This document shows, in pieces, positions 294 to 14,384 of a stretch of 64,000 nt of DNA. This DNA is from Kiloniellaceae bacterium (GTDB lineage Bacteria; Pseudomonadota; Alphaproteobacteria; Kiloniellales; J153), in the NCBI GenBank assembly GCA_021776055.1, contig JAJFGP010000062.1:30147-94146 (forward strand), in the 5' to 3' direction. Made by a program: the position numbers and the translations under genes. The notes below the pieces were generated by a model, which worked only from the letters and a program-made list of their open reading frames with translations, had not been told where the DNA came from and did not search any database. The number at the start of each line of letters is the position of its first letter. The first letter of the stretch is position 1.

Positions 294-542
294 ATGGCCG
301 ATAGAGGTGCACAGAAGGCGCGTTCGGTAGGCGAAGCAGAGACCCCTGCTGATTTCCTAGCAAACTTGGGCAACGCGCTTCGCGAAAAGGAGGATGTGGA
401 CGTCGGTTTGGCAGATATCCTCGCGAAACACCTGCTTACCGCCGCGCCGGCCGTTGACGCGGTCGCGAGAGCCAAGGACGCCGTCCTGAAACTTGCAGGC
501 GACCGAGCCAATCCACCAAAGCCGGAGTTGGCCGATGGCTGA
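294..542 (+). CDS. small hypothetical protein (82 aa), first cistron of the ATPase operon
   Basis: ATG 294 lies about 5 nt after GGGGAGG (282-288). Stop TGA 540-542 overlaps the next start ATG 535 (ATGGCTGA). No family recognised. The ORF track lists it from GTG 288. Confidence 0.5.
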   Translation: MADRGAQKARSVGEAETPADFLANLGNALREKEDVDVGLADILAKHLLTAAPAVDAVARAKDAVLKLAGDRANPPKPELADG

Positions 543-3024
543 CCATTATTTTATCCAATCGTTGGGCCTCGTCGGGTTCCGCGCCTATCTGGAACCGAAG
601 ACGTTTGATTTCAGCAAGAAGCGCTGCCTGGCGATCTTCGCGCCGAACGGCAGCGGTAAGTCTAGTGTCATAGATGCGCTAGAATTCATGTTCTCCAAGG
701 ACGGAACGCTCGAACGGCTCGGGCAGCGTGCCATCAACAACCAGGCCGGTCCCGTGGCGCTGGCGCACAATCTGGCTGAGGAGGCAAAGATCGCGTCGGC
801 GGTCACGATCGGCGTCGTCTCAGGCAAGGATGCCGCCAACGGCAGCCGATCGGCGACGGGGGCGAAGCGGCCGATACCGGCGGTGGCCACGACTGTGAAC
901 GCCTGCTTTGCGGTGCCGCCGATTATCCGCGGGCACACGCTGCGCACCTTCGTCGAAATCCATACACCCGAACAGCGCTACGCGGATGTCGCCAATTGGT
1001 TGCAGCTCGGCCCGCTGGTCGAGGTCCAGAAGAATATTCGTGCGCTGCGCACGCAGGTGAAGGCTGCGGCCGAGGACGAGACGGCGCTGCAGCGTGTGAA
1101 CACCGAGCTTGCCAGGGAGACGACCCAGGTGGTGAAAACCTGGGATTCGGCGGCGGTGCTTACATACGCCACCACGTCGATCTTGGCGCCACTCGACCCA
1201 GCGCTGGTGCTGGCGGCGCTGGCGGCTGGCGATCCGGCTTTTCTCGAACTGAAAGCGCGCGCCAATGCCGAGGAAAACAAGATCGGGATCGCGGGCCTGC
1301 GCCAGATCCGCAATGCGGCCGCCGCTCTGTGGGCAGAAGAGATGGACGCGGAGAGCGGCCAGACCGTCGTCAGTGGCGCGATTCCGACCTTTGACGCGAT
1401 TGTCACGACACTGTCGGCGACGGAGAGTAAGGAAACGGAGGAGCGCGGCAAGGCGGCGAGTACCGTGTTTCAGGCTTTGTGGACAGCCGCAGAACCGCTT
1501 TTCGCCGAAGGCGTACCGGCACCTGACGTTTGCCCGGTCTGTGCAACACCTGTCGCGGACACGGCGGCGGGCAGCGCCGAGTCGATCCGGGACCATATCG
1601 CCAAGCACCTCGAAGAGCTGGCCGACTACGCCGCCGCCAAAAAGGCGCTCGACGAGGCCAAGGCCGTGGCGACCAGGGCCCACACCCAATTGGTGGCGGC
1701 GCTTCCGGGGCTGATTGGCCTGCTTGGCGACGGTGAAGCGGCGCTGAAAACCGGCCTCATCGCGTATCACGCAGGCATCGCCGGCTGGCCGCACGGCGCC
1801 GTGCCGGCCTCGGCCGATATGGGTGCGGCGATCGCCAAGCTGCTCACCACGCTCGATCAAGCCATTGCCGATATCGAGTCGAAGCAAGGCGATCACACCT
1901 ATATCAAGGCCAAGGCGAAGATCGATCGGCTGCTGGAGCTACAGACCGAACGGGACCTTGCGTTGCGGACGCGAGATGAGTTGGGGAAGCTCTCCGATGC
2001 CTTGGCGGCGCAGGCGACAATGATCTCAGCCGAAATCCGCAAGAAGCTGCAGGCCCTGCTCGACAAGCTTCAAACGCCGATGAATGACATCTACAAGTTG
2101 ATCCAGGGCGCTGGCGCCACGCCAATCCGGCTGGAGCTACCGGCAGAAGACGACACGAATCAGCAGCGGCTCAATCTCCTGATTGATTTCGCCAAAAACC
2201 GTATGGGTGTGCAGCCGGGCGGCTATTTGAGTGACTCCCAGATCCATTCAGTGGCACTGGCGCTGCGAATGGCGGCGATCAAGCAGTTTAACGTCGGCGC
2301 GCCCATCATCGCGCTGGATGACATCGTGACCTCCTACGATGCCAATCATCGGCGCACCATCGCCGGGCTCATCGCCGCCATGTTCGGCGATTGCCAGATC
2401 CTGATCACTACCCATGATGAACGGTTCTTCAATTATTTGAAGGATCAGCTCGAGACAGAGGCGTGGCACTTCACCCGCATCATCGGCCTTGACCCAGCGT
2501 ACGGCCCGCGTTTCGCGGACCACAAGGTTAGCGACGAGATGATCGAAGCACGCTGGGCGGATGGTCAGCCGGCGGCCAATGAGATGCGCCAGGCGGAGGA
2601 AGAATGGCTCTTGGGTATCTGCCGGGGATTCGGGGTCAGCGTGCGCATTCGACCGCTGGAAAAGGCGTATTCCTACGAACGTAGTGAGCTGGCCGTGGCG
2701 CTCGCCGGTTTTCTCAAGGATGCCAAGCTAAAGCCCGCGCTTGTGCCGGGCGTCAACAACCGCTTCCTCGCAAGTTTGGTGAAGGGCGAGATCGAGAATT
2801 TCGGCAGCCACTTCCAAGATGGTCCCTATGGCGACGGCTCAATCGGCGACGAGAAAGCTCGGTGGGAAGAGTTCAAAACTTTCCGCGGCCAGTTCGCTTG
2901 CAAGAAATGCAATCGGACGAAATTCCAGCGCCCCTTAACTCTGAAAAAGCCCGTCTGCGCACATGGCGGCTGCGAGGCGCAATTTGAATTCGTCGCGCCG
3001 GTTCCAAACAAGGTGATCCTGTGA
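535..3024 (+). CDS. Rad50/SbcC/RloC-like ABC (SMC-type) ATPase with coiled-coil insertion, CxxC zinc-hook-like motif and C-terminal zinc ribbon
   Basis: Walker A FAPNGSGKSS (GSGKS = nt 649-663). A ~390 aa helical insertion has CPVC near its centre (nt 1531-1542). Signature-like GGYLSDSQ, Walker B PIIALDD and H-loop ILITTHD are present. CKKC-x15-CAHGGC lies at nt 2899-2973. Start moved from TTG 493 to ATG 535 (MADHYF...). Confidence 0.85.
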   Translation: MADHYFIQSLGLVGFRAYLEPKTFDFSKKRCLAIFAPNGSGKSSVIDALEFMFSKDGTLERLGQRAINNQAGPVALAHNLAEEAKIASAVTIGVVSGKDAANGSRSATGAKRPIPAVATTVNACFAVPPIIRGHTLRTFVEIHTPEQRYADVANWLQLGPLVEVQKNIRALRTQVKAAAEDETALQRVNTELARETTQVVKTWDSAAVLTYATTSILAPLDPALVLAALAAGDPAFLELKARANAEENKIGIAGLRQIRNAAAALWAEEMDAESGQTVVSGAIPTFDAIVTTLSATESKETEERGKAASTVFQALWTAAEPLFAEGVPAPDVCPVCATPVADTAAGSAESIRDHIAKHLEELADYAAAKKALDEAKAVATRAHTQLVAALPGLIGLLGDGEAALKTGLIAYHAGIAGWPHGAVPASADMGAAIAKLLTTLDQAIADIESKQGDHTYIKAKAKIDRLLELQTERDLALRTRDELGKLSDALAAQATMISAEIRKKLQALLDKLQTPMNDIYKLIQGAGATPIRLELPAEDDTNQQRLNLLIDFAKNRMGVQPGGYLSDSQIHSVALALRMAAIKQFNVGAPIIALDDIVTSYDANHRRTIAGLIAAMFGDCQILITTHDERFFNYLKDQLETEAWHFTRIIGLDPAYGPRFADHKVSDEMIEARWADGQPAANEMRQAEEEWLLGICRGFGVSVRIRPLEKAYSYERSELAVALAGFLKDAKLKPALVPGVNNRFLASLVKGEIENFGSHFQDGPYGDGSIGDEKARWEEFKTFRGQFACKKCNRTKFQRPLTLKKPVCAHGGCEAQFEFVAPVPNKVIL

Positions 3025-3046
3025 CTCCGATTATGCGGAGAATTGT

Positions 3047-5659
3047 ATGACCGTCAGCGGGCCAGATTTTCGCCAAACGTGGCTTTGGCGGCAAGCCTTC
3101 CAAACACCGCGATCGGACAGCACTACCGAGGAGCAAGAGTTCTTCAGGACGCAGTATCTCTCAATTCGAGAGCGCACAGCGCAGCTCGTTTCCCGGATTG
3201 CGGTCGATTTGCCGGGGATGACTGTTCACGATATCAGCCATCTGGATGCGTTGTGGGACACCGCGTCCTCGGTTGCAGAGGGCGCCGTCAATGTCAATCC
3301 GGCCGAGGCGTTTGTTCTCGGCGCCAGCATACTTCTGCACGATGCGGCGATGAGTCTGGCTGCCTACCCTGGCGGCCTGGCGGAGGTGAGGACAACGGTT
3401 GCGTGGAAAGATGCTGTAGCACGGCTTGCGCTAACTTCGGAGGAAAGAGGCGGCGACAAATTTGACGTTGAGAAACTGCCGGACACCGTTGTTCAACGGG
3501 TCGTACCGGACGTCCTTCGTCGGTTGCATGCGGAGCGTGCGGAAGAACTTGCCGAACAAGCTTGGCGAATGGCAGATAAATCGCAGGTGTATCTGGTCGA
3601 GGACTCCGAGCTGCGTCGGTTCTATGGACCGACGATTGGTCAGATCGCCCACAGTCACTGGTGGTCGGTGCAAAAGTTGGAACAGGAATTCTCTGAGGAC
3701 CTGGGTGCGCTTGCAAATCGAACCCTCAATCGCGTGGATCGGGTAAAACTCGCTTGTCTGCTTCGGGTTGCTGACGCTTTGCAACTCGACAGTTGGCGAG
3801 CCCCGCGGTTTCTTCGCGCGATCACAAATCCAAGTGGTATTTCAGCGCTTCACTGGTCATTTCAAGAGCGACTGGCTAGACCGCATATCGAACTCGACGC
3901 CGTGGTCTTCACCACGGGCCAGCCCTTCGGACGCGAGGATGCGGAAGCTTGGTGGCTTGCATACGACACGTTAAACGCTGTTGACCGCGAGCTTCGAGAC
4001 GTTGATCTGCTCTTGCAGGGCCGAGGCCGTGAGGTATTGAAAGCAAGACGAGTTAAGGGTGCGTGTTCGCCAGAGATCCTTGCACGGTCGGTTCAGACTC
4101 GGGGTTGGCGCCCGGTTGATGCCCGTCTTCAAGTTTCGGATGTGCCTAGCATCGTAGAAAACCTCGGGGGATCGAAACTCTACGGCAACGATCCTACGGT
4201 GGCGTTGCGCGAGCTAATTCAAAACGCAGCCGATGCGGTACAGGCCAGACGAAAATATCAGAATCGCCCCGCTGATTGGGGGCTCATCACGGTCGGTTTG
4301 CTCTCGGAAGGGGACAGAACATGGCTTGTCGTTGAAGACAATGGCGTCGGCATGTCTGAACAGGTGCTAACCGGCCCCCTTTTGGATTTCGGGACGTCGT
4401 TTTGGCGATCACCTCTCGCGATGGAGGAGTTCCCCGGCCTCATGGCCGCGGGCATGCGTGCCATCGGCCGATTTGGTATCGGATTCTTCTCCGTGTTCAT
4501 GCTCGGCCCCGTCGTGCGGGTGTACTCTCGACGCTGCGACAAGGGTCAAGAAACGGGGCGGTTGTTGGAGTTTCGCGGTGGTACGAGCTCTAGGCCAATT
4601 CTTTCTCCTGTGTCTGGCGGTCCCGTGCCAATCGACGGCGGCACACGAGTTGAGGTCTTGCTAAAAGACCGTCCGCACGAAGCGGGTGGTCTGCTGCATG
4701 TCAATTCCTACTCCAAACGAACGATGTCGTTGGATGCGCTTGTTGGTGCGGTCGCACCGAATCTCCATGTAGCGATTGCAACGATGGTGCAGGAGGCCAC
4801 CCAACCGGTCGTTCAGCCGGGCGATTGGTTAAAGATCAGTGATTTCGATCTTGTGCGCCGTCTGAATCCGATGCTTGACCGCTCTGAATCTGATACGCCG
4901 AAGGCAGATCGGGCGCTGATGCAACCGATTGGAGATGTGAATGACCAAGTGTTTGGCCGAGCCTTTATATCGCCTTCGCGATACTTATTTTCGGCGGACG
5001 GAGGCTGGGTAACTATTTCCGGATTGCGTGCTTCCCGTCTCCACAATGTGCAAGGGGTGCTGCTTGGCGAAGCGGTTACTGCCGCTCGAGACGCTGCTCA
5101 ACCACTTGCCACAGGAGAGGCACTAGCAAAGTGGGCATCGAAGCAAGCTGAAATGATTGCCGTTGCGGTGAATGACGAGGAGCGTCAGGCACGTTCTGCC
5201 GAAGTTGTACTGGAATGCGGAGGAGAGATTGGTAATCTCAAGTTAGTGAAGTGTGGATCCGACTGGCTGACCGCAGTCGAGTTCACCGAGCGTCTTCGGT
5301 GTTCAACGGAGTTAGCGATCAGCTTCGATGGCGAGTTCGATTATGATGAGAATCAGGACGATGTTCATCCAAAGGAGTTTCGTGAGGAATTCGAGATATC
5401 GGAAAAGATTGCGTTGGTTCTGAAGCATGACGGAAGCATATTACGGAGCGGAGGCAATAGTTGGCCAAATTCTCTCACTGGACAGTCCAAGTGGAGTGAC
5501 TCGAACGTGGCTGCACATACGAGAGAGTTGATTCGCAGCGTATGGGGCGAGAACCTTGAGGAGGACGGAGAAGAGCGTGTGGTCGGCAAGGTGGGCACCT
5601 CTGAGATCATTCGTCACGTGGCAGTATTTCGCAAGGCAGATGGCGAAGGGTTTCTTTAA
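3047..5659 (+). CDS. HD phosphohydrolase domain fused to an Hsp90/sacsin-type GHKL ATPase, with ~370 aa unassigned C-terminus
   Basis: HD motifs are HDISH, ILLHDAAM (HD = nt 3338-3343) and LLRVADAL. Bergerat-fold motifs are ELIQNAADA (4211-4237), VVEDNGVGM (DNGVGM 4337-4354) and GRFGIGFFS (from 4466). A 22-nt gap separates it from the upstream gene. Confidence 0.85.
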   Translation: MTVSGPDFRQTWLWRQAFQTPRSDSTTEEQEFFRTQYLSIRERTAQLVSRIAVDLPGMTVHDISHLDALWDTASSVAEGAVNVNPAEAFVLGASILLHDAAMSLAAYPGGLAEVRTTVAWKDAVARLALTSEERGGDKFDVEKLPDTVVQRVVPDVLRRLHAERAEELAEQAWRMADKSQVYLVEDSELRRFYGPTIGQIAHSHWWSVQKLEQEFSEDLGALANRTLNRVDRVKLACLLRVADALQLDSWRAPRFLRAITNPSGISALHWSFQERLARPHIELDAVVFTTGQPFGREDAEAWWLAYDTLNAVDRELRDVDLLLQGRGREVLKARRVKGACSPEILARSVQTRGWRPVDARLQVSDVPSIVENLGGSKLYGNDPTVALRELIQNAADAVQARRKYQNRPADWGLITVGLLSEGDRTWLVVEDNGVGMSEQVLTGPLLDFGTSFWRSPLAMEEFPGLMAAGMRAIGRFGIGFFSVFMLGPVVRVYSRRCDKGQETGRLLEFRGGTSSRPILSPVSGGPVPIDGGTRVEVLLKDRPHEAGGLLHVNSYSKRTMSLDALVGAVAPNLHVAIATMVQEATQPVVQPGDWLKISDFDLVRRLNPMLDRSESDTPKADRALMQPIGDVNDQVFGRAFISPSRYLFSADGGWVTISGLRASRLHNVQGVLLGEAVTAARDAAQPLATGEALAKWASKQAEMIAVAVNDEERQARSAEVVLECGGEIGNLKLVKCGSDWLTAVEFTERLRCSTELAISFDGEFDYDENQDDVHPKEFREEFEISEKIALVLKHDGSILRSGGNSWPNSLTGQSKWSDSNVAAHTRELIRSVWGENLEEDGEERVVGKVGTSEIIRHVAVFRKADGEGFL

Positions 5660-6378
5660 TGGCGCGATCTAAGCCAATTGATCTAGCAACGCGGTCTTTC
5701 GAAACGCAAAGCGACGCCAAGACTTTTTTCAAGGCCATACTGAACCGCTACCGGCCGGGCGAGCGACTCACCGAAGAAGATGGTCTTGATCTTGTTGCAC
5801 TTCTTGAGCGCCACACAGAGTATGTCGACAAGGTGGGGTGCGGCGTCGGCCACTTTGAAGTCATGAGGACCGAGCACGGAACGCAATGTTTCCGGATTGT
5901 CCGTACTGACGGGAGCGGGACCGATTTTTCCTATATCCATTGTATTTCACAACGCGCGCCCAGTCGGAAACAGGAGGTAAGCCAAGGTTTTCGGCGAGCG
6001 GTAAAGTTAGATCTCTATAGGGCTCGCGATAGATTCTTTGCTGCTCACAAGGGCGCGGACGGCCTTGTGGCATGTGCTGTGACAAGTGAACGCATTGGGC
6101 GGGACCAAGGGCATATGGATCATTGCCCCCCGATGACATTCGAGGTCATCGTGACAACATTTCTGTGCGGGCGCGGCCTATCGCTCGACGATGTGCCGCT
6201 TACCACAGGGCGGGACGAGCAGGTCTCACCAGAAGTAACGGATGAGGCGCTGCGTGATAATTTTCGGTCCTATCATGCCAGGGTCGCGAGACTCGATTTC
6301 GTGATAAGTAGCGTTAACCTCGCACAGGCCGGCCGACACCGACTCAGACCGGGGCGCATCGATCTAGTTTCGGAATGA
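5659..6378 (+). CDS. DUF3223-like protein with a possible degenerate His-Me (HNH-like) C-terminal half
   Basis: The start overlaps the upstream stop (TAATG). The N-terminal ~100 aa (..HFEVMRTEHGTQCFRIVRTDGSGTDFSYIHCI) matches my recollection of DUF3223. The later C-x14-HMDH-CPP segment resembles the first half of an HNH finger. Confidence 0.65.
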   Translation: MARSKPIDLATRSFETQSDAKTFFKAILNRYRPGERLTEEDGLDLVALLERHTEYVDKVGCGVGHFEVMRTEHGTQCFRIVRTDGSGTDFSYIHCISQRAPSRKQEVSQGFRRAVKLDLYRARDRFFAAHKGADGLVACAVTSERIGRDQGHMDHCPPMTFEVIVTTFLCGRGLSLDDVPLTTGRDEQVSPEVTDEALRDNFRSYHARVARLDFVISSVNLAQAGRHRLRPGRIDLVSE

Positions 6379-6435
6379 ACGAAGAAGATGGCCGTGGATC
6401 ATGGCGAACTATGTCTGCGTTCCGGGACGCAGGGA

Positions 6436-6698
6436 ATGGCTGAAGGCAAATGCAAAGTTCGCGTCTTTTACTCTTGGCAAAGCGTTTCTCCAAAAAAGGC
6501 GAATTTGTATGCGATCCGGGAGGAGCTTGGGGAGACAGCCAAGCGCGTCGAAGCGGCGACAACCGAGATAAAAATATACTTGATGAAGCAACTCTGGACA
6601 CATGGAGAAGCCCGAATGCCGTGCCAAAAACTTCAGAAGAAATCGAGATGGCGCGCTTGAGATATGTGTCCGGGATCAACGCTTATGGAACAAGCTAG
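6436..6698 (+). pseudogene. frameshifted, truncated remnant of a TIR-like (YSWQSD-type N-terminus) defence-associated gene
   Basis: Frame of ORF 6388-6660 reads KVRVFYSWQSVSPKKANLYAIREELGETAKR. Frame of ORF 6450-6698 continues ILDEATLDTWRSPNAVPKTSEEIEMA. Together they mimic the N-terminal ~70 aa of TIR-like proteins (..FYSWQSDLP..NR.FI....RDT.GSP.I...I..KI). The rest of the gene is missing. Confidence 0.45.
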
Positions 6699-6926
6699 CC
6701 TGATTGTGTGACGAAAGATATCGGCCTCATCGTAACCACCAAGGAGTGGAGATGAGAATGAAATCCGGGACAGCTAACCCATCGGCCGAGAGGGTCATGA
6801 AAGATCCCCGCATGAATATAAGAGTGGCTATCCTTGCTATAGGCACTTTGGGATGCTCGTTGATACGCAGTACTTGTCAACGATGCTTGACCATGTAGAG
6901 ATGCTAGCTGCCATATGAGTAAGAAG

Positions 6927-7598
6927 TTATCCACGTCTCGTGCACCGCAAGTTGAAGCTCTCAATCCAACTTTCATGAAATTTCGGTAAAAGATTTACCG
7001 TGGCCTCTACAAGTTCGTCACCTACAGCTTCGGGCATACCGTGCACAAACGCATTTCGCTGTTGTTGAACATTTTCTAAATGTGTACGAACCGAACTGTA
7101 ACCGAGATCATCTAAGTCGTCGCCGTAGCGATTGCCAAAAAGAATTCGATGTAGTCGATCAAGGCGCGCACCAATTGAGGCATAACGGCTCAGAAGATCT
7201 GACGCGACCGGCCTCGGAAGCTCACTTGTTGCTGTTTCATAAAACCAACCCATGAGCGTTTCGAAATACGTCCAAAATAACAGAATAACTAATACGCGTT
7301 CTGAAGGACGATTTTCTTTGGGAAGAGACAGACCGTTATCTCTACCCAAAGGTCGAACCCAATCTCGATGCATAAGCTGAAGCATTGCATATGGAGACCA
7401 GTCGAGCGCTCCTGCAAATGCTTGCGGCACTAAAACAGTCTTACCTTCGGTAACAATTTCAGTCGGAGAGATATTGCGGTAGTTCGTTGCACAAACTGGA
7501 CAATCATCATTGAGGTCCATCAGTGCTCGGCATGAACCGCATCTTATTCGGTCTTTCCACGCGCCCCACCACCACTCCCAATTATTTGATTCCATCAA
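6927..7598 (-). CDS. zinc-ribbon + HEPN-like protein (putative RNase effector)
   Basis: N-terminal CGSC-x9-CPVC. An Rx4H motif, QQQRNAFVHG, lies at nt 7041-7058 near the C-terminus of a helical region. It is on the same strand as, and 39 nt downstream of, the DUF6527 gene. It is visibly more AT-rich than its neighbours. Confidence 0.6.
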   Translation of the reverse strand: MMESNNWEWWWGAWKDRIRCGSCRALMDLNDDCPVCATNYRNISPTEIVTEGKTVLVPQAFAGALDWSPYAMLQLMHRDWVRPLGRDNGLSLPKENRPSERVLVILLFWTYFETLMGWFYETATSELPRPVASDLLSRYASIGARLDRLHRILFGNRYGDDLDDLGYSSVRTHLENVQQQRNAFVHGMPEAVGDELVEATVNLLPKFHESWIESFNLRCTRRG

Positions 7599-7637
7599 TA
7601 TTCTTTCCCGACTATGTATTATGCTAAACGCTGATAT

Positions 7638-7994
7638 CTATTCCTGAATAAATTTACACCATGAAATACGCCCCATGCGGAACCAAAAATGGGAGCCGCA
7701 GTCCTTCTTGCGCCATATGGACGGATAGAGCGTAGCCGTACCATCTTCATGCCGGGTCAATTGCCAACACGGTCGCTCGTCAGGCAATAGGTTCATGTAA
7801 AGTACTCTGCCGCAGCCACATGGGCAGATCATGGCAACGTGTTCGTTAAACCCATCTTCCTGAACGACATAGAGGATGCGGCGCTTTGGGCGGCTCGGCA
7901 GCGACTCTTCAACAACAATTGTGCGATACGGCGGAGCAAACCAGTCGCGAAGTTTGCGGAGGGCGCAGGATAGTAGCTTCCGAAACCAGTTCAA
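7638..7994 (-). CDS. DUF6527-family small Cys-rich protein
   Basis: CPCGCG ... PCW ... DCGSHFWF motifs. Overlaps the E1 gene stop by 4 nt. This family usually accompanies the multiubiquitin/E2/E1-JAB gene set. Confidence 0.7.
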   Translation of the reverse strand: MNWFRKLLSCALRKLRDWFAPPYRTIVVEESLPSRPKRRILYVVQEDGFNEHVAMICPCGCGRVLYMNLLPDERPCWQLTRHEDGTATLYPSIWRKKDCGSHFWFRMGRISWCKFIQE

Positions 7995-9406
7995 GCGGCC
8001 CGCCTTTCAGAAAGCTCCATGATTCCGAGAAGCGGCGTGACATCTCCCAGGCCGACGCTGCCCCCTAGAATTTCGCAGATACCTTCTTCGGGATCGTAAA
8101 TAATCTCCATGCTGGCGAGGCTGAATGTGACAGCGGCGTAGTTGTTGTTCGGCTCTTCACGGAAGGGGTGAAGGCGCGCGAGGAACTCATTGACCGCCAG
8201 CCCGGCCGCGAACATGTTGACGCTGATGACCGCCGGGCGGTGCGCTTGCACACCGGCGATATATCCGTCCTCGACTTGCTGGTCATGGGCGGCAGGGTCA
8301 TTGCGCCGCAAACCGGCGGCGGCAACCTGGTTCATTGTAAATAGGCCCCGGCTCATCAAGCTTGATCGGCCTGGGCGGATGTAATGGACGGTACCGCATA
8401 TCTCACGAATGTTTCCCTTGGCCGCGCCTTGCCGTATGGCTTCAAGCCGCACACCGATGTCAAAATATGGCAGGGTATAATAGGCCGCGAGCGCATTTAG
8501 CAGATACCGGCCATCGATGGTATCCATACACCCAAAAACCACATCGCATTGCGCGACTTTCCGCACAACCTCCTGGTCCCAAAGATTCCTGCCCAGCGGA
8601 ATAACCCGCGTACCAAGACCGGCCCGATCGATCGCCTCGGCTTGCACATCGACCTTGGGGCGGCCCAATGCGGCGTCACGCATGGTCGAGTTCAGGATGC
8701 GGTTTACGTTACGATCCTCCATGGAATCGTCATCCACGATGACCAGCTCGCCGACACCCAGTCGCATGAGCTGTTCGATCACGGGGCTACCCGTGCCCGA
8801 GGCGCCGATGACAGCGATAGACAGGCGCCGCAGCCGCTCGATTGTCCCCTCATCGAATATCTGCGCATGGGACGCCGCAAAGCTGGGTACGTCCTTGTTA
8901 CCCGCGTCCGCATACCAAAAATGCAAGTCGTCGTCGGCGACGCTGATACATTCGATTGGTTCCATTTTTTGTCCGGACCTAAGAACGCGCCCGAACATTT
9001 GTCCATCGGGCAACATAACAGCGCTTCCGTGTGCAATATCGGCCTCGACCCACCCCCGGATCATGGGCAGCAAGCGGGCATCCCCTTCATCATCCGTTCC
9101 TGAAAAGGCCGGATAGCCGTTCGGGTGACTATGCACCTTAATCACGGAAAGTCGCTTGTCGGCGGCCCGTTCAAGAATGGGAGCAACATAATCCGGGTGC
9201 CAGGTCACGCGTACTGGCGTTCGCTCCGAGCACTGGTCATAGGGCACATCGTGGATTTCGCGCACGACCAGCCGGTGGCGTCGATCACCTTCGCGTCTAT
9301 TGCAAAGAAGAAGGGCGACAGCCTCCTTGCCATCCCCCGGAAAAAGAAAACTCTTGAGGTGCTCGTGCTGGTCGCCCGAAAGCGCGAGGGTTACTGGGAC
9401 GGGCAT
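7991..9406 (-). CDS. JAB/JAMM deubiquitinase-like domain fused to a ThiF/E1-like adenylyltransferase
   Basis: JAMM motif HSHPNGYPAFSGTD (nt 9092-9133) with an upstream Glu (GKEAVALLL). Rossmann IAVIGASGTGSPVIEQLMRLGVGELVIVDDD (GASGTG = nt 8789-8806). Confidence 0.9.
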   Translation of the reverse strand: MPVPVTLALSGDQHEHLKSFLFPGDGKEAVALLLCNRREGDRRHRLVVREIHDVPYDQCSERTPVRVTWHPDYVAPILERAADKRLSVIKVHSHPNGYPAFSGTDDEGDARLLPMIRGWVEADIAHGSAVMLPDGQMFGRVLRSGQKMEPIECISVADDDLHFWYADAGNKDVPSFAASHAQIFDEGTIERLRRLSIAVIGASGTGSPVIEQLMRLGVGELVIVDDDSMEDRNVNRILNSTMRDAALGRPKVDVQAEAIDRAGLGTRVIPLGRNLWDQEVVRKVAQCDVVFGCMDTIDGRYLLNALAAYYTLPYFDIGVRLEAIRQGAAKGNIREICGTVHYIRPGRSSLMSRGLFTMNQVAAAGLRRNDPAAHDQQVEDGYIAGVQAHRPAVISVNMFAAGLAVNEFLARLHPFREEPNNNYAAVTFSLASMEIIYDPEEGICEILGGSVGLGDVTPLLGIMELSERRAA

Positions 9407-9804
9407 TTTTCGAACTCCCTAGCAAGCCAGTCCTCGACGAGGATTACATGAGTGCCCAGAGAGTCGCGGCCAATCTTCCACGGATTCTGCCCGGAGCGAT
9501 GGCGTGACCACCGTTGGTACGACTTGCCATCGATCACCTGCTTGGCGTCCGTCGCACCAATTTGCCTTCCGTCCGTTCTCGCAAGCGCGGGGAAGAAATA
9601 TACCATGTTCAATTCAGTGTTGGGGTAGCCGGTTTCCATGCGGATTGCCGCCGTCACGCGAGGATGATTGTAACCCTCATGTGTCGGAAAGTCGTGGATC
9701 AGAACCCACTGTGAACCATCCACAATGGTTTCCCATGGCAGACCATATTCGTTGAGAAAAACCTGGTCCTGCTCCGGCAGGTCAAACTGGCGACGAAGGC
9801 TCAT
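9391..9804 (-). CDS. prokaryotic E2/UBC-like protein (Prok-E2 family)
   Basis: 137 aa with a YNHPRV (HPN-like) motif and flanking aromatic-rich strands. It sits between the Ubl and E1 genes and overlaps E1 by 16 nt. Family call is from memory of the Prok-E2_E neighbourhood. Confidence 0.65.
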   Translation of the reverse strand: MSLRRQFDLPEQDQVFLNEYGLPWETIVDGSQWVLIHDFPTHEGYNHPRVTAAIRMETGYPNTELNMVYFFPALARTDGRQIGATDAKQVIDGKSYQRWSRHRSGQNPWKIGRDSLGTHVILVEDWLAREFEKCPSQ

Positions 9805-9807
9805 CTA

Positions 9808-10149
9808 TTAGCCCTCCGTCTGATCGCGCGGCAGCGCCTTGAACTTCTCGACGCCGGGACGGCGCAGGTCAACTTTTTCGTCGAGCCCGACCTTTTGGGG
9901 TTTTTCGCCAGCCAATTTGACTCGCAGTGTATAGTTTTCCACCGGGATCAGACCGCCAAGGGTCAGTATCTCGCGCCCGGTGGGCAGCGGATCGTGGACC
10001 ACATAGGGGTCGCCGTTGATCTTGAGGCGGTAACCCCTGGCGAGCGGGGGCCGCTTGCCGAGCTTGGCGTACTCCTCAAGGTCGATTATGTCGTCGAGCA
10101 CCGCTTCGACACCGGAGGAGTCCTCCTTGGATTTAGATTGAGTAGTCAT
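9808..10149 (-). CDS. ubiquitin-like beta-grasp protein (multiubiquitin-family), C-terminal Gly
   Basis: 113 aa with an acidic N-terminus followed by GYRLKINGDPYVVHDPLPTGREILTLGGL...YTLRVKL. It ends ..RDQTEG-stop (GGC 9811-9813, TAA 9808-9810). First gene of the minus-strand operon. Confidence 0.7.
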   Translation of the reverse strand: MTTQSKSKEDSSGVEAVLDDIIDLEEYAKLGKRPPLARGYRLKINGDPYVVHDPLPTGREILTLGGLIPVENYTLRVKLAGEKPQKVGLDEKVDLRRPGVEKFKALPRDQTEG

Positions 10150-10227
10150 TCATAGGTTCCTTTTTGCTAGTTAAGCTCCGGGCCACCTTGGCCAGGCATG
10201 ACCAAGTATGCCAAAGCATGCTAAGTT

Positions 10228-10279
10228 TGTCAAGCATCTAATTAGCACGCTTGACATAGCTAGCGACAATGGCTAGAAT
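10228..10279. promoter_or_regulatory. divergent promoter/operator region between the Ubl operon and the XRE gene
   Basis: Inverted repeat TGTCAAGC (10228-10235) / GCTTGACA (10249-10256). Plus strand: TTGACA (10251-10256), 17-nt spacer, TAGAAT (10274-10279), then AAGGAG and ATG 10315. Minus strand: the mirrored TTGACA is followed 17 nt later by CATACT. Confidence 0.55.
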
Positions 10280-10314
10280 CGTAAGGAAAACAACGCATCA
10301 AGGAGCCTGCCTAT

Positions 10315-10710
10315 ATGTCCACAGCCACCAGAGACAGGACCACCGTGAAACCGACCCTGGGGCAATACCTCGCTTCGATTCGCACCGACCGGAAGTTGAC
10401 TCTGCGCCAGGTCGAGGAGGCCACGAACAAGGAAGTTTCGAACGCCTATCTCAGCCAAATAGAAAACGACAAGATAAAAAAGCCCTCGCCCAACATTCTT
10501 CACACACTCGCGGAACTCTACGGCATCAGTTTTGAGAAACTGATGGATATGGCCGGATACCTGATGTCATCGACGAAACGCGCCGACGATGACAGGCACG
10601 GCCGCGTGGCAACCTTCGCTGAGCATAACCTTACGTCCGACGAGGAAACGGAGTTAATCCAGTATCTCCAATTCATTCGGGGCAGGAATCGGAAACGTGA
10701 CAAAGCCTGA
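10315..10710 (+). CDS. XRE-family helix-turn-helix transcriptional regulator
   Basis: LRQVEEATNKEVSNAYLSQIENDKIKKPSPNILHTLAELYGISFEKL is a typical HTH_3 sequence. AAGGAG RBS. Overlaps the next gene by 14 nt. Confidence 0.9.
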   Translation: MSTATRDRTTVKPTLGQYLASIRTDRKLTLRQVEEATNKEVSNAYLSQIENDKIKKPSPNILHTLAELYGISFEKLMDMAGYLMSSTKRADDDRHGRVATFAEHNLTSDEETELIQYLQFIRGRNRKRDKA

Positions 10711-11641
10711 TGATAGTAGCCTCGACCCCGAGGATCTTCGCGCGGTCGAGGCGCGTGCAAGGCGTCTCCTAGACCGCGCGGACGCATGGAACCGATTTCC
10801 CGTACCAATTGAGGATATTCTTTCCGCCGCCAAGGTTCAGGTCGCGCCAACCAGCGCATTCGACGCGGATTCTATTCTTGCGTATCTAAAGGGTAGGGCC
10901 GCGGACACTGGGGTGCGTATCAAATCGGCGATCACAAAGGTGTTTGGGCTTTATGATGCTGGAGAAAGCCTGATCCACGTTGATGACACCGTGGTCGAAT
11001 CAAAGCGAACGTTTCTAAAACTACATGAAACGGCGCATCACGATATGCCGACACACCGGAAGACGTTTCGATTCTTTCAGGACTGCGAAAAGACACTCGC
11101 GCCTGAGATCGCGGATCAGTTTGAGCGAGAGGCGAACAATTTCGCCCGCTTCGCACTTTTCAAGGGTGATACTTACGCGGAGTACGCATCAGACTGTGCG
11201 TTCGAAATCAAAACGCCAATGAAGCTCGCAAAAAAGTTTGGCGCATCAATTTACGCATCCGCCCGCGAGTTCGCGCGGACGAACGACAGGGCGTGCGTTG
11301 TTTACATCTTGGAACCGCCAGAGTTTTGCCAAGCGAATGGTGCGAAGGCTATCGTTCGGCGCATCGAGCCCTCCAATGACTATGTCGCGCGATTTGGGCA
11401 TCCGGCCGACAAGGTTATCACGTCCGATCACTTCCTTTGGTCGGTACTGCCCTGTGGTCGCAGAATGACGCGGCCCACTGCAGTTTCGGTCATCGACAAA
11501 AATGGAACGTGCCACGACTGTGTGGCAGAGGCGTTCGATACCACTTACAATGTGTTGATCCTGCTCTATCCCGTGCGAGCCCTAAGCGCTAGGACGATCA
11601 TCCTGCCTCGGGGCTTCAAGAAAAAGGTCGCCGATAAGTAA
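10697..11641 (+). CDS. ImmA/IrrE-family zinc metallopeptidase (DUF955-like) with a long C-terminal extension
   Basis: HExxH motif HETAHH at nt 11024-11041. GTG start overlaps the XRE stop. This is the classic XRE-ImmA pairing. Confidence 0.85.
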   Translation: MTKPDDSSLDPEDLRAVEARARRLLDRADAWNRFPVPIEDILSAAKVQVAPTSAFDADSILAYLKGRAADTGVRIKSAITKVFGLYDAGESLIHVDDTVVESKRTFLKLHETAHHDMPTHRKTFRFFQDCEKTLAPEIADQFEREANNFARFALFKGDTYAEYASDCAFEIKTPMKLAKKFGASIYASAREFARTNDRACVVYILEPPEFCQANGAKAIVRRIEPSNDYVARFGHPADKVITSDHFLWSVLPCGRRMTRPTAVSVIDKNGTCHDCVAEAFDTTYNVLILLYPVRALSARTIILPRGFKKKVADK

Positions 11642-11693: not shown

Positions 11694-12572
11694 ATGGTCA
11701 GACGCATAACGGCATCGCAGTGGAACAGTAAAGTGCGTCAGGCGCAGCAGAAGCATCGCCAGGCCATCGGAAAATATAATTCCGAGGTCAGAGCTTATAA
11801 TCAGAAAGTCAATCAGGCGGTCAACAAATACAACAGTGAAGTGAGCGCCCACAATGCGCGGGTTCGGGCGAACCGACAGCGACTGAAAAACGAAATAGCG
11901 CGCCTAAGCCGCCAGACAGTAACGACGCGCTACGTTACATTCCGGCCATCGGTCAACGAAGTCCAAAGCGCGTACGAGCGATTGGAACATGCGGCGGACT
12001 CGAGCGGTTATGACGATCGGTACAACGAAATTCTCGATCTGTCGGAACGTGAGGCCGCCAACAATGCTGGTCTGATGAACGCATTGCTGGGTGATGCGCA
12101 GTCGTCCAATGAACAGCCGCCGAACGCGCCCGAGAGCCCGCTGTCGCCCATTCTTCAGGCGATATCAGGCGAACTTGCCGACCGTTGGCGGGGCGCGCTG
12201 TACTCTTTGAGCCCGCAGAACCCCGATGCCGCGCGACATTTTTGTACGAGTGCGCGTGAAATCATCGCACGAATCCTGGATACGAAGGCGCCTGATAGTT
12301 CCGTTGCCGCCGCGATGCCGGATTGCGACCGCACGCAGCAGGGAACGCCGACGCGACGCGCTAAGATACGCTATTTCCTGCACTTGCAAGGAATAAATAA
12401 GGATGAACTTGTGGCGTTCATCGAAAGCGACATGGATAACGTGGTTGATTTGTTTGATGTCTTTAATATGGGCACCCATGGTTCCGCCGGAACGTTCGAC
12501 TTTGCGCAGCTTCAGGCGATCCGCAAGCGGGTTGAGGATGGGATCATGTTTCTCTCCCGGCTGATGCGCTAA
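11694..12572 (+). CDS. hypothetical protein with an N-terminal tandem 18-aa repeat and a helical C-terminal domain
   Basis: AIGKYNSEVRAYNQKVNQ / AVNKYNSEVSAHNARVRA (nt 11763-11870). The C-terminus (NPDAARHFCTSAREIIARIL...PTRRAKIRYFL...FNMGTHGSAG) resembles, from memory, domains annotated as pPIWI-associating nuclease. That call is uncertain. Confidence 0.55.
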   Translation: MVRRITASQWNSKVRQAQQKHRQAIGKYNSEVRAYNQKVNQAVNKYNSEVSAHNARVRANRQRLKNEIARLSRQTVTTRYVTFRPSVNEVQSAYERLEHAADSSGYDDRYNEILDLSEREAANNAGLMNALLGDAQSSNEQPPNAPESPLSPILQAISGELADRWRGALYSLSPQNPDAARHFCTSAREIIARILDTKAPDSSVAAAMPDCDRTQQGTPTRRAKIRYFLHLQGINKDELVAFIESDMDNVVDLFDVFNMGTHGSAGTFDFAQLQAIRKRVEDGIMFLSRLMR

Positions 12573-12911: not shown

Positions 12912-12998
12912 TGGGGGCGGACGGCGGGATTCGAACCCGCACGACTGTTAGTCATTGGATTATAGGTCCAATGTGTCTACCAATTTCGCTACGTCCGT
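12912..12998 (-). tRNA. type II (long variable arm) tRNA-Leu-like gene, probably degenerate
   Basis: Reverse complement is ACGGACGTAGCGAAATTGGTAGACACATTGGACCTATAATCCAATGACTAACAGTCGTGCGGGTTCGAATCCCGCCGTCCGCCCCCA. The T-arm (GCGGG/TTCGAAT/CCCGC) and D-loop are good. Position 1 is mismatched, the D-stem is weakened, the anticodon loop is CCTATAA (C at position 33) and the tail is CCCCA. Confidence 0.45.
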
Positions 12999-13032
12999 AG
13001 TGTTTACATGTGATTTTAAGCCTGCGGTTCTC

Positions 13033-14211
13033 CTAGGCGGCTTCACTACCTTTCATCGTCGATTCTATTTGGGTCGCAATTCGCTCGGCGGCATCCTTGA
13101 CTGGATCGGCCGCTAGGTGTGCATATCGCGCCGTGGTCTGAGCTTGGGTGTGGCCGAGGAGCTTGCCGATCATGGGCAGGCTTTCGCCGAGATTGGCCGC
13201 GACGCTGGCATAAGAGTGTCGGAGGTCGTGCATCCGGACGTCATGAAGATCAGCCCGCTTTCTGATCGCTTCCCACTGATGGCCCATCCTTGTCATATGA
13301 CCCCGGTGGAAACGGCCGACGAGCACGTGGGGATTGTCCTGCACCCGTGGGATCGCTTTCAGGACGTCAATCGCCGGGCCGGATAGATAGACCGTCTTCC
13401 GGCCGGTCTTGCTGTCCGCGAGATTGATCCGCTTGTTCTCGAAATCGATGTAGTCCCACTTGAGGGTCAGGATTTCGCCGAGACGGCAACCGGTGAAGAT
13501 CAACAAGCGGATCGCCTGGATGGCTCCGATGAAGATAGACCCATCCTTTTCGGCCTCGTTGAGGATCTTGGCGAGCCGTCCGAACTCCACTGGCGAAAGA
13601 TAGCGCTCCATCTTCCGGCTTGGGTACTTGTCGATGTGCCGGCAGGGGTTGGTGCCGTCGGACCGCAGGCCCCACTTCTCAGCCAGATTGAACATCTTGC
13701 CGAGCAGCCCCATGACGTGGTTGGCGGCACCCGGCCGGTCGACCATCTTCGCGTGCAGGCGCTGGATATCGGCGCGGGTCACGAGGTCGAGGCGTTTCTT
13801 TCCCAGGGCAGGGAGGACATGGTTGTTCAGGTTGGATATGTCGGACTTTACGCTGCTTGGCTTCTTCTTGGGACGGGCGTGTTCATCGAGATAGCGCTCG
13901 GAGAACTCCCGCACGGTCGGCTTTGTCCGCGCCTCGCGCAGGTCCTCGCTCGGGTCTTGACCCATCGCCACGCGGGCCAGCCATTGCTGCGCCTTGGTCC
14001 GGGCCTGATCGCAGGTGATTTTGCCATGAACGCCGAGGGCAGGGCGCCTCTGCCGACCGTCGAGTGTTCGGTAGTAAAGCAGGTAGGCGCGCTTGCCCTT
14101 GGGCGTGATCTTACAGCCGAAGCCACTTAGCTGCCGATCCCAGAACACAGAATCGGTCTTGCCAGGTTTGGCGGACTCAACCACTCTCTTGGTCAATTTG
14201 ACGCGATTCAT
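13033..14211 (-). CDS. int: tyrosine site-specific integrase (P4-type, DUF4102 N-terminus)
   Basis: N-terminus KLTKRVVESAKPGKTDSVFWDRQLSGFGCKITPKGKRAYLLYYR. Catalytic HDLRHSYAS and LLGHTQAQTTARYAH. Start moved to ATG 14211 (MNRVKL). Confidence 0.9.
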   Translation of the reverse strand: MNRVKLTKRVVESAKPGKTDSVFWDRQLSGFGCKITPKGKRAYLLYYRTLDGRQRRPALGVHGKITCDQARTKAQQWLARVAMGQDPSEDLREARTKPTVREFSERYLDEHARPKKKPSSVKSDISNLNNHVLPALGKKRLDLVTRADIQRLHAKMVDRPGAANHVMGLLGKMFNLAEKWGLRSDGTNPCRHIDKYPSRKMERYLSPVEFGRLAKILNEAEKDGSIFIGAIQAIRLLIFTGCRLGEILTLKWDYIDFENKRINLADSKTGRKTVYLSGPAIDVLKAIPRVQDNPHVLVGRFHRGHMTRMGHQWEAIRKRADLHDVRMHDLRHSYASVAANLGESLPMIGKLLGHTQAQTTARYAHLAADPVKDAAERIATQIESTMKGSEAA

Positions 14212-14384
14212 GAGTCGATATCGCCCGATTTCTAGGTAGCACATAGGTAGCAGAAGAACGGGAAACGCCGTGCACTCCACCGAATGCTACCGTGAGTCTA
14301 GTCGTGCGCAGCTCTCTGATATAGAAGGAAATAGTGCGTTTCCGTGAAGGTCAGTGAGCTACACCGATAGGGCGATAGTACGAG

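Follow-up and report, generated by a model that had tools for sequence, protein, structure and literature searches.

A zinc-ribbon and HEPN-like protein gene recurrently located beside Bub operons

Here we describe X223, our working name for a gene in a 64,000-nt stretch of a Kiloniellaceae genome (contig JAJFGP010000062.1; hereafter the window, in which all positions are counted). X223 lies at the 3' end of a Type I Bub operon (formerly 6E.1/DUF6527) that consists of bubA, bubB, bubCD and bubE. It is a member of a small, as yet unnamed family that occurs in defence islands, and the association of this HEPN-like family with both types of Bub is new and well supported. On balance, we read X223 as a self-contained predicted RNase, composed of a single-zinc ribbon and a diverged HEPN domain, whose gene preferentially sits beside Bub and is expressed together with it, here as the last cistron of a CapH/CapP-controlled operon. 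An earlier note on this DNA had proposed that X223 is an effector controlled by ubiquitin-like (Ubl) conjugation or deconjugation, or else an independent neighbouring toxin. The HEPN hallmarks and the Bub linkage behind that interpretation were upheld, whereas obligatory Ubl control fits poorly with three findings: some copies stand without Bub, few Bub operons carry the gene, and its placement varies.

The X223 family and its linkage to Bub

The 223-aa open reading frame (ORF) described in the earlier note is present and lies, as stated there, on the same strand as the DUF6527 gene, bubE, whose stop codon ends at 7638 (Table 1). A Shine-Dalgarno-like site, GGGAAAG, is located 7 nt 5' of an ATG at 7595, one codon after the TTG that opens the ORF, and a 100% identical public NCBI protein (P0001) is annotated at 222 aa. 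As both the spacing of the ribosome-binding site and the length of the NCBI product match the ATG, it is probably the true start, and the residue numbers used below may shift by one. The gap to bubE is 39 nt when counted to the TTG, as previously noted, and 42 nt when counted to the ATG.

A homology search identified 79 homologues (E<=1e-26), and a profile of the C-terminal domain retrieved at least 250 clusters. As these clusters are under strong constraint, a chance ORF is rejected. A profile search of 1.84 billion representative proteins yielded 279 matches at E<=1e-3, which makes this a small and compact family. The X223 protein itself had no match in Pfam, PADLOC, NCBIfam or PHROGs. The best 150 matches of the profile search and the best 120 of a permissive search with the C-terminal domain alignment were all strong family members, with no bridge to annotated HEPN families among them.

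An alignment of 134 full-length homologues revealed two conserved regions. Four cysteines near the N-terminus (C20, C23, C33 and C36) were kept in 130-132 of the 134 sequences, and confirm the pair of knuckles reported before, C20-G-S-C23 and C33-P-V-C36 separated by nine residues. In the structural model, beta-hairpins at residues 17-28 and 46-57 bear these knuckles and are followed by a helix. The two CxxC knuckles form one predicted zinc site of the zinc-ribbon type, with matches below threshold to Spt4/RpoE'', RecR and other zinc ribbons in Pfam and NCBIfam. A RING or E3 reading of this region was rejected, as it needs an eight-ligand cross-brace and the family has four conserved cysteines and no further conserved N-terminal Cys or His. 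The second region contains the motif QQQRNAFVHG, found exactly where the earlier note placed it, with R181 to H186 mapping to nt 7058-7041. Its R and H are conserved throughout the family: R181 was kept in 132 of 134 homologues, and N182, H186 and G187 in 133 each. W109, F112 and E113 were invariant (134/134), position 134 was acidic in 128 sequences, with D commoner than E, and R138 was kept in 131. No lysine was found among the invariant or 90%-conserved columns.

Next, we focused on the genomic context of the family. A scan of one genome per species gave 27 loci with an X223 homologue (referred to with L numbers), around which Bub was sought by tblastn and iterated local hidden Markov models. 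Bub genes were located within 8 kb of the homologue in 17 of these 27 species-representative genomes. The Bub-linked loci are from Alpha- and Betaproteobacteria, Bacteroidota, Acidobacteriota, Gemmatimonadota and others, spanning six or more phyla, and they cover both Type I (JAB-ThiF) and Type II (DUF6791-ThiF; L012, L021/L022 and L026). Bub was also present in eight of nine further metagenome and plasmid contexts, in one of them as an E1 remnant. This non-random proximity across lineages is that of a Bub-associated accessory gene.

The arrangement of the two differs between loci. The homologue directly follows bubE on the same strand in the window, L001, L004, L021/L022 and L024/L025, and it overlaps bubE by 4-7 nt in the metagenomic L033, L042 and L043 and the genomic L025. 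Elsewhere it is located after capH-capP and divergent from bubA (L002 and plasmid NZ_CP044329), after a Fic gene (L010/L011/L023 and L044), after an Xre-RES pair or a gene for an extracytoplasmic function (ECF) sigma factor, upstream of bubA (L016 and L003), or convergent with bubE (L026 and L014).

No Bub was located near 10 of the genomic copies or near one from a metagenome, and most of these were intact. Several that were examined sit among restriction-modification (RM), AbiE-like, helicase-nuclease or GmrSD genes. As the Bub-free copies are mostly intact and surrounded by defence genes, they support the autonomy of X223. Conversely, an X223 homologue was found on only one of 125 plasmids with BubE (~1%), where Bub lies 4 kb away. 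With this rarity and its absence from the published operon architecture, X223 is not a core component of Bub. The association is asymmetric: the gene rarely accompanies Bub, but Bub often accompanies the gene. The earlier note had suggested a survey for variable genes at the position after bubE. Six sampled Bub plasmids had nothing, small ORFs or a ClpP-like protease there, so the slot is variable.

Several neighbouring genes recurred in these loci. A gene for a ClpP-like or SDH-type serine protease is a recurrent occupant of the slot after bubE (L010:3136-4035 in sphingomonad loci and L037:4914-5522 on a Rhizobium plasmid). A Peptidase_S8 gene (subtilase, ~745 aa) lies directly upstream of bubA in L001:2227-4464, L004:3108-5378, L033:1044-4408, L042:182-3410 and L043:30-3395, and is itself preceded by an AAA ATPase gene in the latter three. 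These loci are the Type I Bub operons whose HEPN-like gene after bubE is closest to the copy in the window, which lacks this pair. Fic/DOC genes with an intact HPFxxGNGRxxR motif are found directly upstream of the homologue (L010:7008-7928, L011:6173-7093, L023:7005-7925 and L044:4882-5934), from abutting (annotated ORFs, L010/L011) to 66 nt away, and fall into two groups (L010/L011/L023 and L044) that are alike in little beyond the active-site motif. On a Methylocystis plasmid, the homologue is followed by an overlapping gene annotated as AbiV family, a HEPN-type abortive infection protein (L035:5953-6519, reverse strand), and on its other side the Bub operon is bordered by an AbiJ-NTD4 gene and an AbiEi/AbiEii pair. 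In one context (L029:6546-6956, L030:4856-5266), a Bub E1 fragment is located 45 nt upstream of a seemingly solo homologue, with an IS21-type gene and a type I RM system beside them, and resembles a decayed Bub operon that kept its HEPN-like gene. The homologues of two Dehalococcoidia metagenome-assembled genomes (L013:7953-8660 and L015:7968-8654) have an in-frame stop at similar places; they could be pseudogenes, long-read errors or instances of recoding.

The operon in the window has the composition defined for Type I Bub by Ye et al. (bioRxiv 10.1101/2024.11.21.623953), and the S-x6-C-x2-H spacing of its BubE agrees with the published Ser/His catalytic dyad and zinc ligand. The capH/capP pair encoded beside it accompanies 31% of Bub operons (bioRxiv 10.1101/2024.11.21.623953). 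A scan of 6300-10400 for promoter-like and terminator-like sites found promoter-like sites only between bubA and capH, and neither a promoter-like nor a convincing terminator-like site between bubE and X223. As judged from these predictions, X223 most likely shares a transcript with bubA-B-CD-E that starts in the one promoter region under CapH control. BubA in the window is free-standing and already ends in Gly, yet BubCD keeps its JAB domain, which in published Type I operons cleaves a BubAB fusion.

Table 1. Features of X223 and the adjoining Bub operon, with positions in the window.
Feature	Position	Strand	Basis or remark
X223, zinc-ribbon and HEPN-like protein gene	6927..7598	-	223-aa ORF; TTG start; probably 222 aa from ATG 7595
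HEPN-like all-helical domain, residues ~99-218	6945..7304	-	modelled helices; consensus match to PF18735
R181-N182-A-F-V-H186 (Rx4H), then G187	7041..7058	-	kept in 132-133/134; end of helix 168-185
[D/E]134-x3-R138, candidate second HEPN motif Ex3[K/R]	7185..7199	-	acidic 128/134, R 131/134
Zinc-ribbon knuckles C20-x2-C23...C33-x2-C36	7491..7541	-	Cys conservation; modelled hairpins; sub-threshold zinc-ribbon matches
bubE-X223 spacer, 39 nt	7599..7637	-	carries the GGGAAAG ribosome-binding site
bubE, DUF6527 serine protease	7638..7994	-	PF20137, E=5e-23
bubCD, JAB peptidase-E1 fusion	7991..9406	-	Prok-JAB and ThiF
bubB, E2	9391..9804	-	Prok-E2_E, E=1e-42
bubA, Ubl, separate ORF ending in Gly	9808..10149	-	Multi_ubiq, E=4e-16
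Divergent sigma-70-like promoter pair, bubA/capH	10205..10279	.	only promoter-like sites found in 6300-10400
capH-like helix-turn-helix repressor	10315..10710	+	HTH_3; PADLOC capH, E=1e-5
capP-like metallopeptidase	10697..11641	+	PADLOC capP, E=1e-11

The C-terminal domain and the HEPN superfamily

HEPN domains are recognised by an Rx4-6H motif whose R is usually followed by N, D or H, often by a second acidic residue, Ex3[K/R], in helix 2, and by an up-down bundle of four helices in which an insert separates helices 2 and 3 (PMC3710099). A random R-x4-H is expected in about a quarter of proteins of this size, as estimated from the usual frequencies of R and H. By itself the motif is therefore no proof, and its weight comes from conservation. 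The AlphaFold2 model of X223 (pLDDT 92.4 and pTM 0.87 for the whole protein; pLDDT 93.0 for the C-terminal domain alone) contains helices at residues 102-123, 129-138, 142-154, 158-164, 168-185 and 194-218. R181 and N182 close the penultimate helix (168-185) and H186 opens the loop 186-193 that leads to the last helix (194-218), with pLDDT 95-98 in this region. The [D/E]134-x3-R138 motif falls inside helix 129-138, which we ourselves assign as HEPN helix 2, and the short helix 158-164 occupies the expected position of the HEPN insert. The family thus has the sequence and positional features listed in PMC3710099, with the placement of the helices taken from a predicted model.

Profile comparisons point in the same direction. 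Among 24,736 models, the best match of the family consensus was PF18735 (HEPN_RiboL-PSP; E=1.1e-4, 22.7 bits, profile positions 32-178 of 191), and a reversed consensus gave only noise (E=0.06). Replacing RN..HG by alanine abolished the match, and neither half of the consensus alone gave one; therefore, the motif and the flanking helices both contribute. Eight of the 27 members individually matched HEPN_RiboL-PSP weakly (best E=0.0084; best listed score 15.8 bits), and the HEPN_Apea and HEPN_Cthe2314 models matched the motif region of the family. In a Foldseek search of the PDB with the full model, the top match was an AMPylated HEPN toxin (TM 0.51 on the target, E>1), and the best fold matches (8xdj, 8xeh and 8yuf) were HEPN toxins of the HepT/MntA kind.

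These searches also produced results that weigh against a HEPN RNase. The consensus did not reach the PF18735 gathering cut-off of 28.4 bits and no HEPN model matched at its curated cut-off, while the X223 protein of the window itself gave no HEPN match in the Pfam search. Four motif residues supplied most of the consensus match score. The Foldseek E-values against the PDB were above 1, and a model of the domain alone did not sharpen the search, which then placed generic four-helix bundles on top. Foldseek against BFVD gave nothing meaningful, and neither the profile nor the consensus retrieved more than noise from the PDB sequences, such as zinc ribbons of L32 or Spt4 and designed helical proteins. 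Alignment of the domain by hhalign with the window's pP_pnuc_1 protein and with the AbiV protein of plasmid NZ_CP044329 detected no relationship in this single-sequence comparison of low power. Motifs, helix order and the consensus match favour the HEPN-like assignment of the earlier note, while no curated score threshold was reached and no structural similarity was significant. Taken together, the C-terminal domain very probably belongs to the HEPN superfamily, and it belongs to no named HEPN family.

The nearest of the named families is RiboL-PSP-HEPN (PF18735), described as a distant relative of AbiD/AbiF. Like X223, it has an R-N-x3-H-G that ends the penultimate helix, an upstream acidic-x3-basic motif, a helical bundle with an insert, and a defence-island context. 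Unlike it, X223 has no L-PSP fusion or ParB neighbour, its consensus score is below the family cut-off, and no structural match was significant. HepT/MntA similarly offers a small HEPN toxin in mobile elements and the best fold matches. However, X223 has no MNT partner and no DUF86 match, carries an extra zinc-ribbon domain, and matches these structures only at E>1. No nucleotidyltransferase (NTase) gene adjoins X223 in the window, and DUF86 was absent among the 25 listed of 32 Pfam matches of the 27 members.

Proposed co-regulation with Bub and alternative readings

X223 adjoins a complete bubA-bubB-bubCD-bubE operon with capH/capP, but the gene falls outside the published Bub architecture. 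We best read the coupling as co-regulation plus some functional synergy, and not as obligatory control by Ubl conjugation. Published work on the CapH and CapP regulators suggests how such a locus might operate. DNA damage or phage infection would lead CapP to cleave CapH, which would derepress the Bub-X223 operon. The HEPN domain, probably acting as a dimer like other HEPN enzymes, may then cut RNA in a metal-independent manner via R181, N182 and H186 together with D134 and R138, with growth arrest or abortive infection as the putative outcome. The zinc-ribbon region would be the likely sensor, RNA-binding or auto-inhibitory part. Two points weigh against this reading: our analysis of X223 and its neighbours identified nothing, such as an antitoxin, that would restrain a toxic RNase, and published work has so far observed no phage defence by Bub operons.

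Type II cyclic oligonucleotide-based antiphage signalling systems (CBASS) provide a parallel. They too combine an E1/E2/peptidase module with a nuclease-type gene under CapH/CapP, and there too the nuclease-type gene also occurs without Ubl machinery. In Type II CBASS, the Cap2/Cap3 Ubl machinery is added to an autonomous effector system. The X223 locus differs in that it has no cGAS/DncV-like nucleotidyltransferase (CD-NTase) or nucleotide second messenger.

A more specific role in Bub is possible but rather unlikely: X223 could be a dedicated effector or target, in which BubA is conjugated to X223 or a partner by BubB/BubCD and removed by BubE, switching the HEPN RNase on or off. Published accounts of Bub describe an unusual oxyester Ubl conjugation whose targets and biological role are unknown, report that no phage protection was observed, and make no mention of HEPN or of an effector. 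With no Bub target or effector in the literature, the family might, if this doubtful proposal held, supply the output arm that some Bub pathways lack, or be their physiological substrate. In its favour, the gene is linked to both Bub types, across six or more phyla and at least five arrangements, it overlaps bubE in several loci, and the only plasmid with a homologue also carries Bub. However, 10 of the 27 genomic copies are without Bub and mostly intact, the gene occurs on one of 125 Bub-bearing plasmids, it differs between loci in orientation and in the gene that it follows (capP, Fic, Xre-RES or an ECF sigma factor gene), and no lysine is conserved at the 90% level. A possible variant is that unrelated enzymes, Bub and Fic, were independently recruited as covalent regulators of the same RNase.

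Alternatively, X223 might cut no RNA and act as an adaptor or sensor that, on binding a phage protein, RNA or a nucleotide, recruits or informs Bub in an E3-like or specificity-factor role. Bub and Bil systems have no recognised E3 in the literature, the zinc knuckles have weak matches to Prok-RING_4 and RING-like models, and HEPN domains can serve binding roles (PMC3710099). Yet the four conserved cysteines make one zinc site and no RING cross-brace, R, N and H are almost fully conserved, as is typical for active HEPN enzymes (PMC3710099), and Bub-free copies exist. We therefore regard a non-catalytic role as improbable.

It is very unlikely that X223 is the toxin of a toxin-antitoxin-like pair neutralised by an upstream-encoded enzyme, by analogy with the AMPylation of HepT by MntA (PMC7641770): intact Fic genes of two groups directly upstream of homologues and an AMPylated HEPN toxin as the top fold match would suit a pair in which Fic, or possibly BubE/Bub in the window, is the antidote, but no Fic or MNT gene adjoins X223 here, the gene upstream differs between loci, Fic genes occur widely in mobile islands, and the fold match is not significant.

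A conserved predicted RNase that recurs with both Bub types gives Bub a testable phenotype, for instance toxicity or RNA cleavage, and a candidate interaction partner. Should X223 prove to be only a neighbouring toxin, the result would be modest and add one more HEPN family of defence islands. If instead a Ubl-switched RNase were true, it would give Bub a testable phenotype, and it would to our knowledge be the first bacterial toxin nuclease under ubiquitin-like control. The unnamed family escapes the current models of Pfam, NCBIfam, PADLOC and PHROG and could be added to defence annotation. HEPN toxins are commonplace in defence islands, and zinc-ribbon-HEPN fusions have already been catalogued (PMC3710099). 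X223 offers a useful experimental handle on Bub and no new principle.

Probable acquisition of X223 and the surrounding island

The composition of X223 differs from that of its operon. Its GC content is 46.6%, and 39.3% at third codon positions (GC3), versus 58.6% and 65.5% for the E1 gene, in agreement with the AT-richness noted before. Such a large GC3 gap between the two genes (0.39 vs 0.65) was found in the window only; it was at most 0.14 in 23 other loci. The identities of the proteins are discordant as well. The Bub proteins of the window are 74-81% identical to those of Methyloligella (L002), where the X223 homologue is 58% identical and placed elsewhere. The closest genomic copies of X223, in L001 and L004, are 67-68% identical, whereas the Bub proteins of these loci are only 35-49% identical. 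A mosaic breakpoint was sought inside bubE and none was found, as BubE is L002-like to its C-terminus; this places the recombination junction at or after the bubE stop. The earlier remark that X223 looks like swapped-in cargo thus gains support. The sequence comparisons are best read as a copy from a lower-GC donor that recombined onto the 3' end of the Bub operon and was recently swapped in.

The Bub locus lies within a defence and mobile island. Between X223 and a convergent DUF3223 gene is an AT-rich stretch of 548 nt (6379-6926; GC 0.50) with short ORFs and no Pfam match, probably part of the imported low-GC patch or a decayed gene. The DUF3223 gene (5659-6378) is the last of three co-oriented, abutting genes on the forward strand (493-6378), after an SMC/AAA-like ATPase gene (493-3024) and an HD-CE and GHKL-ATPase gene (3047-5659). 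Its protein matches PADLOC HamC2 (E=1e-50), and the trio may constitute a defence system of its own, distinct from canonical Hachiman. On the other side, capP is followed on the forward strand by pP_pnuc_1 (11694-12572), a predicted pPIWI-associated nuclease gene (PADLOC Aga_Nuclease), in the slot that the X223 homologue occupies in L002 and on plasmid NZ_CP044329. Beyond it, on the reverse strand (12914-14280), a tRNA-Ile with the unusual anticodon TAT adjoins a tyrosine-integrase-like gene (13033-14280), which probably marks the edge of the island.
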